Origin: Eubacteriaceae bacterium
Lineage (GTDB): Bacteria > Bacillota > Clostridia > Eubacteriales > Alkalibacteraceae
Reading direction: 5' to 3'
Length of the DNA stretch: 64,000 nt
Assembly: GCA_003446375.1 (NCBI GenBank)
Contig: DMAW01000007.1
Location: 1,863 to 65,862 of the forward strand
A model generated the notes under the pieces. It was given only the letters and a program-made list of their open reading frames with translations. It had not been told where the DNA came from and did not search any database. This document shows positions 6,274 to 48,392 of the stretch, in pieces. Numbering within the stretch: the stretch's first letter is position 1; each line of letters starts with the position of its first letter. The translations under genes were made by a program, and so were the position numbers.

Positions 6274-6565
6274 GTAAAAAAAAATCTCCCGCCTCTACAA
6301 GTATCTCTATACTTATAGGGACGAAAGATATTATCTCGTGGTACCACCCTAATTCACAGCTTTTTTGCCGCCTCGTTGTCGGATCTGCCTCAAACCGCCA
6401 AATCCTTATCCCTTTATCGGAGGATACCGCTTTCACCTACTAAAATCCATGTTTTTCAGCAAAAGTGCTCTAAAGTGAGTATTACATACCGCCTTGACAC
6501 CGCCTTTCACCAACCGCCGGCTCTCTAAGTCAAAACAATGGTACTTTTCTCTTCGTCATCGCATT
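6274..6565 (-). ncRNA. T-box riboswitch leader, probable Leu (CUC) specifier, upstream of ilvC operon
   Basis: T-box AATTAGGGTGGTACCACG at 6354-6337; stem I AGAGA and GGTGAAA motifs; CTC at 6479-6477; terminator GGCGGGAGA plus T-run before ilvC RBS. Confidence 0.9.
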
Positions 6566-6589
6566 ATCTATTATTCCATATTAGAAATA

Positions 6590-20342: not shown

Positions 20343-21200
20343 CTATTTACCCATTTCTGTTCTTTTCTTTCCTATTAAGTCAAACCTGTTTTTGATATCA
20401 CTATAATTTTCATTTTCGATACAATCCTTAAAATAACTTATGCTTGAAATAAATTCATCTAAAATATCTACAAGCTTATCTTTATTGGCTATAAACAACT
20501 CCGCCCACATGGCAGAATTGATCATAGCTATCCTTGTCATGTCCTGAAAGCTTCCACCTCCAAACTGGGTAACCTTGTCATCTTCACTGATATCAACCAT
20601 CGATGCTGCTATTATATGGCACAATTGGCTTGTGAATGCGATTTTTTCATCATGGGTTTCAGGATCGGTTTCAATAATTTTGCCAAATCCCATTTTAGAT
20701 ATTAGGCTGCGCATCATATCTAAATTCTCAGGCATATTAGTATGAATCGGGGTAAGTATATAGTTCTTGCCTTCAAATATCTTTGCAGAAGTAAAGTCTT
20801 CTTCATTCTTTTCTCTGCCAGCCATAGGATGCCCGGGCACAAAGTCAATATCCGCTCTTAAATGCTTCATGATATCCTCCACCATTTTGCGTTTTAAGCC
20901 TACGATATCCGTAACCACTGAATTTGCTTTGAACATATCCATATTCTCTATTATGAATTTTAAGGCGTCGTGTAGGTAAAGGCATACAAATACAATATCG
21001 CATTGCGGCAATACGTCTTTGGGGTTTTGGAAGCCTTCGTCTATTAGTTCGCAGGCTTCAGCTCGCCTGAGCACTTTTTGATCCCTATCAATAGCATAAA
21101 TTTTATCAAACCCTATTTCTTTAAAACTTGCCGCATATGCGCTTCCCATGAGACCTAAACCTACAATGGCAACTTTCTTGTCCTTAAAGTCAATTTCCAT
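20343..21200 (-). CDS. tyrA: Prephenate dehydrogenase
   Basis: VGLGLMGSA Rossmann fold, GHPMAGRE, HD..IAFTSQLCH. Confidence 0.9.
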   Translation of the reverse strand: MEIDFKDKKVAIVGLGLMGSAYAASFKEIGFDKIYAIDRDQKVLRRAEACELIDEGFQNPKDVLPQCDIVFVCLYLHDALKFIIENMDMFKANSVVTDIVGLKRKMVEDIMKHLRADIDFVPGHPMAGREKNEEDFTSAKIFEGKNYILTPIHTNMPENLDMMRSLISKMGFGKIIETDPETHDEKIAFTSQLCHIIAASMVDISEDDKVTQFGGGSFQDMTRIAMINSAMWAELFIANKDKLVDILDEFISSISYFKDCIENENYSDIKNRFDLIGKKRTEMGK

Positions 21201-22217
21201 CTATTCCATTACCCTCCCCTCAATTTGAGCATACTGTTTTAAAACCTTCATCATCTGATCGAATTTTTCCGGTTTCAGAGATTGTGCTCCGTCGCATAAC
21301 GCAGTTTCGGGAGAGTTGTGAACCTCTATCATAAGCCCGTCTGCTCCTGCCGCCAAAGCCGCTTTAGCCATAGGCTCCACCATCCACCACATGCCCGTTG
21401 CATGGCTTGGATCTACGAAAACCGGAAGGTGGCTTTTTTTCTTTACAGCTGGTATGGCGCTCAAATCCAAGGTATTCCTTGTGAATGTTTCAAAAGTCCT
21501 TATTCCCCTTTCACATAATATAACCCTCTCGTTTCCTTCTTTCATAACGTATTCCGCAGACATTATCCATTCTTCTATAGTGGCCGCAAGGCCTCTTTTT
21601 ATCATTACAGGCTTATCGCACTTTCCAAGTTCCTTTAATAGCACAAAATTTTGCATGCTTCTGGCTCCCACCTGAATTATATCTACATCTTCAACAAAGG
21701 CATCGATCACATCCGTAGACATTATTTCAGAGACTATTGGCAACCCGGTTTCTTGCCTAGCAAGCTTTAAAAGCTCTAAACCGTCAAGGCCCATTCCCTG
21801 AAAACTGTAAGGTGACGTTCTAGGCTTGAATGCCCCGCCTCTTAAAAAAGCCGCTCCGGAAGCTTTAACGCTCTTAGCTACGTTAATTACCTGTTCCTCG
21901 CTCTCTACAGAGCATGGCCCGGCTATTACGCTAAATGCACTTCCCCCGACTTTTCTTCCCTCAACTTCAAATACGCTGTCTTTAGGATGAAACAACCTAT
22001 TTGCTTTTTTGTAAGGCTCTTGGACCCTGAGTACCTTTTCGACTATTTCATTTGAAGCTATGCTATCTACGTCAACAGATCTTGTATCTCCAATCAAGCC
22101 CATTACGATATGATCCACCCCTTTTGAAAAGTTGATCTCCATTCCTCTTTTAATTAAATTTTCTTTCAGCTTTTCCAATTCACTTTGCGGAGCATCCGCT
22201 CTTACCACGACTATCAT
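21201..22217 (-). CDS. aroF: DAHP synthase class I-beta with N-terminal regulatory domain
   Basis: IAGPCSVES, GGAFKPRTSPYSFQG, ILCERGIR, DPSHATG, CDGAQSL. Confidence 0.96.
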   Translation of the reverse strand: MIVVVRADAPQSELEKLKENLIKRGMEINFSKGVDHIVMGLIGDTRSVDVDSIASNEIVEKVLRVQEPYKKANRLFHPKDSVFEVEGRKVGGSAFSVIAGPCSVESEEQVINVAKSVKASGAAFLRGGAFKPRTSPYSFQGMGLDGLELLKLARQETGLPIVSEIMSTDVIDAFVEDVDIIQVGARSMQNFVLLKELGKCDKPVMIKRGLAATIEEWIMSAEYVMKEGNERVILCERGIRTFETFTRNTLDLSAIPAVKKKSHLPVFVDPSHATGMWWMVEPMAKAALAAGADGLMIEVHNSPETALCDGAQSLKPEKFDQMMKVLKQYAQIEGRVME

Positions 22218-22237
22218 TTCTTCTCCTCCTTTGTAAT

Positions 22238-22262
22238 AAAAAAAGAGACCCCATCGAGTCTC
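22238..22262 (-). terminator. Intrinsic terminator in the aroF leader (attenuator candidate)
   Basis: GAGACTC-GATG-GGGTCTC followed by T7, just ahead of the aroF GGAGG RBS. Confidence 0.8.
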
Positions 22263-22316
22263 CTTAATTTTTATCCATTAATTTCCATCTATTCTCACAA
22301 GGGCACTCCATGCCTT

Positions 22317-22433
22317 TTAACACTTATTTTTTTGTACGTCAAAATAACCAAAGCCATAATAATAGCTCCAGCTAAATCCGTAAAAATAAAAAGCGCTATC
22401 AAGTTTTTTTGCACTAAAAACCTGTTTTGACAT
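22317..22433 (-). CDS. Putative aromatic leader peptide MSKQVFSAKKLDSAFYFYGFSWSYYYGFGYFDVQKNKC (38 aa)
   Basis: GGAGG RBS 7 nt before ATG; 12 of 17 consecutive codons are Phe/Tyr/Trp; lies between promoter and terminator upstream of aroF. Confidence 0.7.
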   Translation of the reverse strand: MSKQVFSAKKLDSAFYFYGFSWSYYYGFGYFDVQKNKC

Positions 22434-22461
22434 GGTATTTCCTCCAAGATAAATTTATATC

Positions 22462-22490
22462 ATTATACTTTTAAACAATTCAATTGTCAA
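22462..22490 (-). promoter_or_regulatory. Consensus sigma-A promoter for leader-aroF-tyrA
   Basis: TTGACA (22490-22485), 17 bp, TATAAT (22467-22462). Confidence 0.85.
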
Positions 22491-22507
22491 CGCATCTTTT
22501 TTATAAA

Positions 22508-24136
22508 CTATAGTTTGTGCTTTTTGACAAATGCCTGAATGAATTCTTTATTGCTGTTTGTTCTGCCCATGGTTTCAATGAGCTTCTCAGCCACATCTGC
22601 TGAAGAATGGTTTGAAAAAACTCGGCGTATCCCTATTACAAATTTCATCTCTTCATCCGTCAATAGCTTATCTTCTCTTCTTGTACCCGATTTATAAATA
22701 TCTATTGCCGGGAAAATCCTCTTTTCTGTAAGGCTTCTATCTAGGTGCAACTCCATATTTCCAGTCCCTTTGAACTCTTCGAATACCACATCATCCATCC
22801 TGCTGCCTGTATCAATAAGAGCCGTAGCTAAAATAGTTAGGCTTCCACCCTCTTCGATATTTCTTGCAGCTCCGAAGAATTTCTTGGGAAGATAAAGCGC
22901 CTCGGGATCCAAACCACCTGAGAGAGTCCTTCCCGATGGCGGAACGACTAAATTGTTGCCTCTGGCAAACCTTGTTATGCTGTCCATCAGTATTACTACA
23001 TCTTTTCCTTGCTCTACCAGCCTTTTGGCACGTTCCAATACGATTTCTGCGACCTTTATGTGATTTGCCGGCAATTGATCAAATGTAGAATAGACTACGT
23101 CTGCTTTTACATATCTTTGTATATCTGTAACCTCTTCCGGTCTCTCATCAATCAAAAGGACTATCAGTTCGATTTCAGGATTGTTTTTTGTTATAGAATT
23201 TGCAATCTCTTTTAGAAGTATGGTCTTTCCTGCTTTTGGCGCCGCTGCTATCATCCCTCTTTGTCCTTTGCCAACAGGTGCAAAGAGATCGATTATCCTA
23301 GTAGATACTGGGAATTTCCCTGTTTCAAGCTTTATTCTTTCATCCGGGAATACCGGGGTCAGCCTCTCAAAATTCGGTCTGTTCACAACTTTTTCCGGGA
23401 CATCTCCATTTACAGTCTCTACATATAAAAGGGCATCGAATTTTTCACCTTCGTTTGGAGTCCTTATCTTTCCCACTATCTTATCTCCGGTTCTCAGCTT
23501 AAACCTTCTTATTTGAGATGGAGATACGTAAATATCGTTGTCTCCAGAGAGATAGTTGTTAGTCCTTAAAAAACCAAAGCCGTCACTTAAAACATCCAAT
23601 ATTCCCATCTGAGACTTGCCATATCTGCTCATATCATTTTTTTCGGGATTATTCATGAGATCTTCTTCTTCCTTCATGATCTCACTGGTGCTTCTGCCAT
23701 TTACGCTTTCGACAAAAAGCATGGCATAGTATTTTTCTCCCTCTCGGGGACTTCTTACTTTTCCTTTGATTTCATTTCCGGACCTGAGCTTAAATTTTTG
23801 AATCTGAGATGCAGAGACGTAAACGTATTCTTCCGGAGACTCCATGCTGTCGTTTTTTAAGAATCCAAAGCCTTCGGGAAGTACCTGCAATGTTCCGGAA
23901 AGATCGAAAGCAGAATCTACAGGATCTTTTAATCTGGCATATTTGCCTCCGTTTTTTTCTTCTACATTGATTGTTGAAACCTTTTCATTTAAGTCGAGCT
24001 TCTCCTTGGGCGCAGTTTCCTTAAGAAGCTCCACGAGTTCTTCTTTTTTGAGCTTAGTGTAGTTTTTAAGTCCTGCATCTTTTGCTTTTTGCCGCAATTC
24101 TGCTACGGTCATGCTATCGAGATCGATCTTGCTCAA
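22508..24136 (-). CDS. rho: Transcription termination factor Rho with duplicated RNA-binding domain
   Basis: Rho_N helices, two GFGFL...YVS.SQI OB domains, GKGQRG, APKAGKT, DERPEE, FGAARN, GNMELHL. Confidence 0.97.
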
Positions 24137-42920: not shown

Positions 42921-43172
42921 AAATAAAAAACTCCCGCTCCGACGCATATGCGCCAGGGCGGAAGCAATATCCACGGTGCCACCTGACTTGAGCAAATTCT
43001 TGCTCGTCTTTACCGGACTTTAATGTCCGTTCCCATTAACGAGGGAAACCGGTCTTGGCTACTTTTTTCGCCAAGCCTCTCATGAATCCATTCATATGCC
43101 CCATCTTACCGAACTCCCACCAACGCCGGCTCTCTTTAAAGACCATAAGCAGACTACTATTTTCAATCATCG
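42921..43172 (-). ncRNA. T-box riboswitch leader, Trp (UGG) specifier
   Basis: AAGTCAGGTGGCACCGTGG at 42989-42971; GAA-TGG-A at 43090-43088; GCGGGAG plus T-run terminator. Confidence 0.9.
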
Positions 43173-43213
43173 AGTTTGATTATTTTGTCCATTATACACC
43201 CTTTTCAAGGATT

Positions 43214-47967: not shown

Positions 47968-48185
47968 AATAAAAAAAACACTTCCGCTCATATAAGAACG
48001 AAAGTGTCTGACTTCGTGGTACCATCTTACTTCGCACCCAAAGGGTGCCTCTTTTGTTAACGGATTTACCGGATCTTATCGATCTGGCTCAGAGTTGATA
48101 TTCGATATGCTTCCACTGACGATCTTTCAGCCTAGGATCATTTCTCTAAAAGCTTTGTCATATCTACTGGTCTCTTCACAGCCTT
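47968..48185 (-). ncRNA. T-box riboswitch leader, Ile (AUC) specifier
   Basis: AGATGGTACCACGAAG at about 48027-48012; GAAT-ATC-A at 48099-48097; terminator before ileS. Confidence 0.88.
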
Positions 48186-48392
48186 TTTATATGAATTTGT
48201 ACGATATATTTTATACAGATTATTTGAGAAATGTCAAGGCTTTTAAGTTTTGTTTTGGTTTGAGTTATACAATTATTAGTTATGTCCCTTATCTTGAATA
48301 AATTTAATCGACTATAATTTGTTCGCTGCAACTTTACATAAATTCATGTATTCATGTTATAATGTCAATAAAATATCTGATAGGAGATTAGC

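Follow-up and report, generated by a model that had tools for sequence, protein, structure and literature searches.

A probable leader-peptide attenuator with a run of aromatic codons upstream of aroF-tyrA, and its relatives in Clostridia and Negativicutes

RESULTS

Organisation of the aroF-tyrA leader

The window analysed here is a 64,000-nt stretch of DNA from a 2.55-Mb Eubacteriaceae genome with a G+C content of 38%. Its reverse strand carries aroF, encoding DAHP synthase, the entry point of the shikimate pathway, and tyrA, encoding prephenate dehydrogenase. Upstream of aroF are a promoter, a short open reading frame (ORF) with its own Shine-Dalgarno (SD) sequence, and an intrinsic terminator. 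The features are listed below in the order in which they would be transcribed, with their coordinates in the window.

22462..22490, minus strand: sigma-70-type promoter; TTGACA (22490-22485), 17 nt, TATAAT (22467-22462); 12 of 12 consensus positions match
22441..22445, minus strand: SD sequence GGAGG, 7 nt ahead of the leader ATG at 22433
22317..22433, minus strand: leader ORF of 38 codons plus TAA, encoding MSKQVFSAKKLDSAFYFYGFSWSYYYGFGYFDVQKNKC
22341..22391, minus strand: proposed regulatory codon run, codons 15-31; 5 Phe (TTT), 6 Tyr (5 TAT, 1 TAC) and 1 Trp (TGG) in 17 codons
22335..22382, minus strand: hairpin inside the ORF; conserved core of 22374-22362 paired with 22357-22345, its loop containing Tyr codons; candidate for pausing or synchronising
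22342..22347, minus strand: TTATTT directly 3′ of the codon hairpin; matches the B. subtilis NusG pause motif
22298..22312, minus strand: predicted antiterminator 5′ strand, CAUGGAGUGCCCUUG, starting 5 nt past the stop codon (folding and duplex score)
22252..22266, minus strand: predicted antiterminator 3′ strand, UAAGGAGACUCGAUG, formed by the terminator 5′ arm and its loop (folding and duplex score)
22238..22265, minus strand: intrinsic terminator; 10-bp stem (22265-22242), AAGGAGACUC-GAUG-GGGUCUCUUU, with T7 at 22244-22238
21201..22217, minus strand: aroF, DAHP synthase whose N-terminus is a ferredoxin-like regulatory domain; Pfam DAHP_synth_1 (4e-81) and DAHP_snth_FXD (7e-18)
20343..21200, minus strand: tyrA, prephenate dehydrogenase, abutting aroF; Pfam PDH_N and PDH_C

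An earlier note on this DNA had described the promoter, the ribosome-binding site, the ORF, its codon run, the terminator and the promoter-free gap that follows, and each of these was found where it had been placed. Over its whole length, the leader contains six TTT codons (five of them within the 17-codon run), five TAT, one TAC, and one TGG. The terminator folds at −13.7 kcal/mol (z −4.3). No promoter was found between the terminator and aroF, where only 18 nt separate the T-run from the aroF ATG (22217) and there is thus no room for a second one. When the regions upstream of aroF were compared, most relatives showed a TTGAC-type −35 box and a TATAAT-type −10 box at the same place as the promoter in the window.

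The gene upstream of the leader, rho, ends at 22508 (minus strand), and 17 nt (22491-22507) lie between its stop codon and the −35 box of the leader. There is no terminator in this gap, and rho transcription may continue into the leader and so come under its attenuator. The gene order rho-leader-aroF is kept within the genus and in eight metagenome contigs. The Rho protein of the window has two Rho_RNA_bind stretches (Pfam). Elsewhere in the window, three T-box leaders, all on the minus strand, were detected at the Rfam gathering score (6314-6568, 42951-43179, and 47991-48188); the genes below them are ilvC (KARI), a gene for a PALP-family enzyme (trpB-like), and ileS.

Uniqueness and sequence accuracy of the codon run

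We counted aromatic residues in the 2.29 million stop-free 17-codon segments that the six frames of the genome contain, and at least 12 Phe, Tyr, or Trp residues were found at only four places. At three of these places, the opposite strand encodes ORFs of 594, 687, and 400 amino acids, and the aromatic runs there are therefore composition artefacts; the fourth, the leader codon run, is the genome's only intergenic place with at least 12 aromatic residues in 17. A chance origin of the run is excluded.

The identical 38-aa ORF is recorded from many assemblies. Eight independent metagenome assemblies (Logan, JGI, and ENA), one of them from an oil-production-facility metagenome, contain the same rho-leader-aroF DNA with the same run of seven A residues (A7); the sole difference among the eight is one promoter-spacer substitution, in one assembly. 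At the A7 position, two genomes of the same genus read GCACAAAAACTT, which is of equal length.

Conservation of the aromatic reading frame

The earlier note had pointed to a second, +1 frame that encodes a hydrophobic peptide, LIALFIFTDLAGAIIMALVILTYKK, and had asked which frame the relatives conserve. This frame exists as described and is open in the window; however, it is the aromatic frame that the relatives keep. Frame statistics were calculated for 42 distinct homologous sequences, and start codons and SD motifs were counted over 45 homologues. The aromatic frame has no stops in its core, and its ATG is preceded by an SD-like motif in all 45 homologues. The +1 frame contains stops in 17 of the 45, is stop-free across the core in 28, and has a start codon with an SD in only four; in the window, the sole start it offers is a TTG that falls within the aromatic ORF's SD and has no SD of its own. 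The +2 frame is never open, and none of the 45 homologues provides it with a start codon and an SD.

Changes within the codon run follow the same frame. Indels inside the run are multiples of three, and the codon differences are mostly interchanges among Phe, Tyr, and Trp, with variability highest at codon position 2. This substitution pattern is the signature of selection for an aromatic codon at this place and not for a particular peptide. The fraction of synonymous substitutions in the homologue alignment did not discriminate the frames, since it is raised by Leu codons in the +2 frame; the stop counts, the start/SD counts, and the indel phase are the informative measures.

Distribution of the leader and its association with aroF

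We searched for further members with R1, a covariance model of the 73-nt codon run. Exactly one match per genome was obtained in 48 of the 102 genomes of the order, including Alkalibacter and Acetobacterium; 22 further genomes were matched in other orders (seven other families of the class), as were four genomes of other classes. Among the matches outside the order that were fetched with their surroundings, 13 of 15 lie directly upstream of an aroF homologue. Among the named members are Acetobacterium, several Clostridium species, Cellulosilyticum, and the Negativicutes Pelosinus, Succiniclasticum, and Avacidaminococcus. The aroF locus found at 80% identity is that of Alkalibacter mobilis M17, which assigns the window to the genus Alkalibacter. 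In most relatives in the family and order, aroF is preceded by a short ORF with many Phe, Tyr, and Trp codons and, after it, a terminator. One match outside the class (L080) lies inside a coding region and was rejected as a false positive.

Some members differ in their surroundings. In Acetobacterium-type loci (L009-L015), an extra 120-410 nt lie between the leader terminator and aroF, and a small hairpin-like element, CTTCAGTGCACGGGAGATG or GGTCTTCGGTGCACAGAAGATAAAAA, is conserved in this spacer just ahead of the aroF ribosome-binding site; it may be a second regulatory layer. Another R1 leader (L063, G263:C10) has no aroF within 1.5 kb downstream; the first long ORF after it resembles part of another aromatic-pathway gene, so that the leader may gate other genes in some lineages. 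One genome (G005) has the leader on two contigs, C13 (L056) and C170 (L006), and its aroF-adjacent copy is interrupted by an N run; this double leader could be a duplication or an assembly split.

A wider survey covered 75 named aroF loci with enough upstream DNA and recorded upstream ORFs (uORFs) that had an SD, were followed by a T-run, and contained at least 7 aromatic residues in 17 codons. Such a uORF was found at 39 of the 75 loci, compared with 2 of 75 reverse complements and 4 of 375 dinucleotide shuffles; with the threshold raised to at least 9 of 17, 24 loci remained and both controls fell to zero. The expectation that the element recurs upstream of aroF is thus borne out in many genera by the R1 matches and by this survey. 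The survey also returned aromatic uORFs of unrelated appearance before aroF in Veillonella (...KQYFYWFF...), Treponema (MNKNYFYYYYFSQ...), Fusobacteria, and Oscillospiraceae. In Acholeplasmatales, aroF is preceded by uORFs of 13-17 codons with a Tyr run and two hairpins, for example MLNYKTVSYAYYYYR. Other Acholeplasmatales and an Erysipelotrichaceae MAG have T-box-like leaders before aroF (AGAGA ... GGTGGTAACGCG ... terminator; L136, L107, L162, L165, L171, L176, and L179), whereas peptide leaders precede it elsewhere; the same gene is therefore under either control in different lineages.

Competing terminator and antiterminator folds

When the window transcript was cut at the terminator loop, the minimum free energy (MFE) fold paired 22312-22298 with 22266-22252 (−13.2 kcal/mol, z −2.55), and when the terminator 3′ arm was added, the fold switched to the terminator. 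The two structures have similar energies (−13.2 vs −13.7 kcal/mol). Scored as a duplex, the antiterminator reached −13.3 kcal/mol (z −3.3, p 0.005); its 1x1 and 2x2 internal mismatches count against it. The antiterminator that the earlier note had proposed, GAGUGCCCUU:AAGGAGACUC, is contained in the MFE fold of the loop-cut transcript and has counterparts in other lineages.

For each of 44 homologues, we then took the strongest duplex that the upstream sequence can form with the terminator 5′ arm and loop. The median z was −2.0, and p was at most 0.05 in 25 of the 44. The loop sequence varies, and its upstream partner varies with it, as in UCCUAAUGAGUUA:AGGCUCAUUAGGG and CCUUUUAGUGAGU:ACUCAUUAAAAGG; further lineage-specific pairs are UUUUGAUGAGUUUA:AGGGCUCAUCAGGG and UGUAUAAUGGGCUG:GAGCUCGUUAUACG. 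Every homologue has its upstream strand either in the 3′ part of the ORF or at most 22 nt past the stop codon, a position from which it follows that a ribosome completing the leader would cover or unwind it. In the window, the aromatic run ends 31 nt upstream of this strand. The terminator itself is at the same place in 44 of the 45 homologues analysed.

Other pairings were scored across the family as well. A second pairing suggested for the window, UUAUUUUGAC:GUGAGAAUAG, did not hold up: its median z over the 44 homologues was +0.37, and it is absent in same-genus relatives. No complementarity was found between the regulatory-codon region and the antiterminator strand (median z +0.13), so that the classical 1:2 pairing is not evident. 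The SD/start region of the leader is complementary to the antiterminator strand, with a family median z of −1.06 and 39% of members below −1.65. In the window, 22298-22312 pairs with 22421-22458 (minus strand) through CCAUGUC/GGCAUGG and GGAGG/CCCUU (−12.2 kcal/mol, z −2.4). Folds of transcripts cut before the 3′ arm were mixed, and in the modelled folds of the window the antiterminator strand prefers the SD/start region unless the latter is masked. As modelled, this preference would complicate a simple two-state picture. The pairing may provide default termination on untranslated leaders, or the complementarity may be a by-product of the SD-like terminator arm.

Equilibrium folding with a ribosome footprint placed at every codon always gave at least 90% terminator, as would be expected of a kinetic switch, which this kind of folding cannot reveal. 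Since equilibrium favours the terminator at every ribosome position, the switch would have to rest on co-transcriptional kinetics, and we infer a kinetic decision step between the terminator and the antiterminator.

A covarying hairpin within the regulatory codons

The hairpin inside the ORF (core 22374-22362/22357-22345, outer 22382-22335) folds at −16.5 kcal/mol (z −3.3), a value equalled by none of 200 shuffles. Across the 42 distinct homologues, 89.8% of the cells are paired, compared with 26-45% in slid-register controls; compensatory changes occur in four of eight pairs, and the covariation score was reached by none of 500 shuffles. RNAalifold run on a plain MAFFT alignment returned the same stem. 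The amino acids change and the pairing stays, for example UGG-GGC with GCG-CUGG vs CAA-AGC with GCU-UUGG.

The NusG-dependent pause of B. subtilis has TTNTTT at −11 to −6 and a hairpin 11-12 nt upstream of the pause (PMC11602163). A TTNTTT-type motif stands at exactly the post-hairpin place in 22 of the 42 family members, although it overlaps Tyr-Phe codons there and its conservation need not reflect pausing. By analogy with B. subtilis, the geometry of the TTATTT in the window would put a predicted pause near 22337, and the covarying hairpin together with TTATTT may be a pause signal. A 1-nt indel just after Gly-Tyr-Phe leaves CGTACAAAAA conserved in two frames, which means that this segment is conserved as RNA and not as peptide.

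Alternative readings of the locus

Other readings of the leader were weighed against these data. It is unlikely, but not negligibly so, that the leader works by another translational route, either as a TnaC-like arrest peptide that senses free aromatic amino acids or mainly through aroF translation or mRNA stability. An arrest peptide would suit the fair conservation of the motif S-W-G-Y-Y-Y-S-A-G-Y-F, which includes an invariant Gly, and the complementarity of the antiterminator strand to the SD/start region in many members also speaks for such a route. However, Phe, Tyr, and Trp residues swap freely, the terminator and its competing antiterminator are conserved, and the aroF SD lies outside the terminator stem; moreover, a biosynthetic operon needs induction at low amino acid levels, a need that fits tRNA sensing and not ligand-induced arrest.

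We regard it as improbable that a protein- or ligand-dependent attenuator (TRAP-, PyrR-, or riboswitch-like) operates here, with the conserved hairpin and its flanks as sensor and the ORF incidental. The covariation of the hairpin and the conservation of the segment after Gly-Tyr-Phe in two frames would be expected of an RNA sensor, but an incidental ORF sits badly with an ATG and SD in every homologue, an absence of stops, codon-run indels in multiples of three, and differences dominated by swaps among the aromatic residues. Moreover, the aroF uORFs of Veillonella, Treponema, Fusobacteria, and Acholeplasmatales are unrelated in sequence and have only their codon content in common, and there is no Rfam match. 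That the product is instead the +1-frame hydrophobic peptide, a small membrane protein or type I toxin, and the aromatic frame a miscount of the A-run was rejected as extremely improbable on frame conservation and on the start/SD counts: no stop closes this frame in the window, nor in the core of most homologues, but A7 is identical in the eight assemblies, a start with its own SD is mostly lacking, and the changes preserve aromatic, not hydrophobic, residues.

DISCUSSION

A proposed attenuation mechanism

The leader upstream of aroF-tyrA has an ORF with an SD and a start codon, a cluster of codons for the end products of the pathway, a terminator without a promoter behind it, and an antiterminator strand that a ribosome could mask, as is found in leader-peptide attenuators. 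This anatomy, the conservation of the aromatic frame, the association with aroF, the covariation of the hairpin, and the alternative folds support the reading that transcription of the aroF-tyrA operon is, very probably, controlled here by a ribosome-mediated (leader-peptide) attenuator.

Under this attenuator model, RNA polymerase would start at the consensus promoter and a ribosome would translate the 38-codon leader. When charged Phe-, Tyr-, and Trp-tRNAs are plentiful, the ribosome would reach the TAA and cover the strand CAUGGAGUGCCCUU, which begins 5 nt downstream; with this strand covered, the terminator hairpin would form and RNA polymerase would stop before aroF. The predicted response to starvation is the reverse. 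When a charged aromatic tRNA is scarce, the ribosome would stall in codons 15-31; the antiterminator strand, 31 nt or more downstream, would stay free and pair with the emerging terminator 5′ arm and loop, so that no terminator would form and aroF-tyrA would be transcribed. In this scheme, the codon hairpin and the T-rich tract probably pause the polymerase until the ribosome arrives, as the likeness to the NusG-dependent pause would suggest.

The earlier note proposed that the leader would sense all three aromatic aminoacyl-tRNAs. Only one Trp codon is present in the leader of the window; Trp codons occur in 28 of 40 family peptides, and the other 12 have none. This Trp content would count against three-input sensing.

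A broader reading, which we put forward tentatively and hold to be rather doubtful as a whole, joins four propositions: an ancient and very widespread family in Clostridia and Negativicutes, an OR gate for Phe, Tyr, and Trp, a NusG-type pause at the codon hairpin and TTNTTT, and an initiation region that acts as an anti-antiterminator. If all of this were true, the family would have analogues in Veillonella, Fusobacteria, Treponema, and Acholeplasmatales, and scarcity of any one of the three charged tRNAs would be enough to induce DAHP synthase, with which the common pathway begins. The regulatory codons would themselves form the covarying hairpin, and this hairpin with TTNTTT would couple the polymerase to the ribosome; the translation-initiation region of the leader, as anti-antiterminator, would cause default termination when the leader is untranslated. 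Both of these design features would then be ones undescribed for classical attenuators.

Implications

Control of DAHP synthase is poorly described in anaerobic Firmicutes, including the gas-fermentation acetogens Acetobacterium and Eubacterium. Bacilli use T-boxes or TRAP, and the family suggests that many anaerobic Firmicutes use a ribosome-sensing attenuator in their place. Deletion of the leader or of the terminator would offer an engineering handle for aromatic production. For annotation, dozens of mini-ORFs listed as 'hypothetical protein' could become leader peptides, and the covariance model could join Rfam.

Comparison with known systems

The leader was compared with catalogued families and with published leaders. 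In 22100-22600, no Rfam model (Phe_leader, Trp_leader, the Leu/phe, His, and Thr leaders, and T-box) reached its gathering score, and relaxing the threshold to E ≤ 10 brought up nothing meaningful. Four leader peptides scanned against Pfam and NCBIfam matched no family, and no description of this leader family was found in the searchable literature. The locus had been called unannotated, which was overstated: the leader ORF carries the label 'hypothetical protein' in some public records. The novelty claimed for it was likewise overstated: the family itself is uncatalogued, but leader peptides of aroF are described in Corynebacterium, as cited in PMC11802643, and proposed in Acholeplasma (PMC8632094). 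In Firmicutes, 'regular' leader peptides have been noted for hisS (PMC2965389).

The aroR leader peptide of Corynebacterium glutamicum precedes the aroF operon, and its attenuation was shown experimentally, with a response to Phe and not to Tyr (Neshat et al., 2014, as cited in PMC11802643). As far as it is described there, aroR is alike in that mixed aromatic codons (Phe-Tyr-Phe) gate a DAHP synthase operon through ribosome stalling and attenuation; it differs in that it belongs to the Actinobacteria and has three regulatory codons, whereas the window element has 12 aromatic codons, Trp included, and a covarying codon hairpin. By description, the resemblance is functional only.

Another related case is uORFC-13-1, a computational uORF motif with a promoter, an RBS, and a terminator that occurs exclusively upstream of aroF in a lineage related to Firmicutes, for which ribosome-mediated attenuation was proposed (Brewer et al., 2021, PMC8632094); all 24 sequences reported for it are from Acholeplasma or from environmental DNA. 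The window likewise has a uORF and a terminator immediately upstream of aroF. The Acholeplasmatales aroF uORFs seen in the present loci are much shorter (13-17 codons) and differently built, and an R1 search of one Acholeplasmatales genome gave no match. In Clostridioides difficile 630, premature termination was mapped experimentally in the aroF 5′ UTR (Fuchs et al., doi 10.1101/2020.08.10.244764); this UTR was listed without similarity to known riboregulators, and neither a mechanism nor a uORF was put forward for it. Together with the experimentally shown aroR, the mapped termination lends outside support to the attenuator reading. Compared by description, that locus also has a short terminated transcript upstream of aroF and also belongs to Clostridia, and the family described here offers a candidate mechanism for this unexplained termination.

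The enterobacterial leaders pheL, trpL, and pheM share with the window element the regulatory codons, a stop codon beside the antiterminator strand, a terminator that competes with an antiterminator, and a leader hairpin at which polymerase can pause. Each of them, however, senses one amino acid, and they have no similarity to the window element in sequence or model. The mechanism proposed here is that of trpL and pheL, in a family that is absent from the catalogues searched and widespread in Clostridia and Negativicutes; what is gained is breadth and annotation rather than a new principle.
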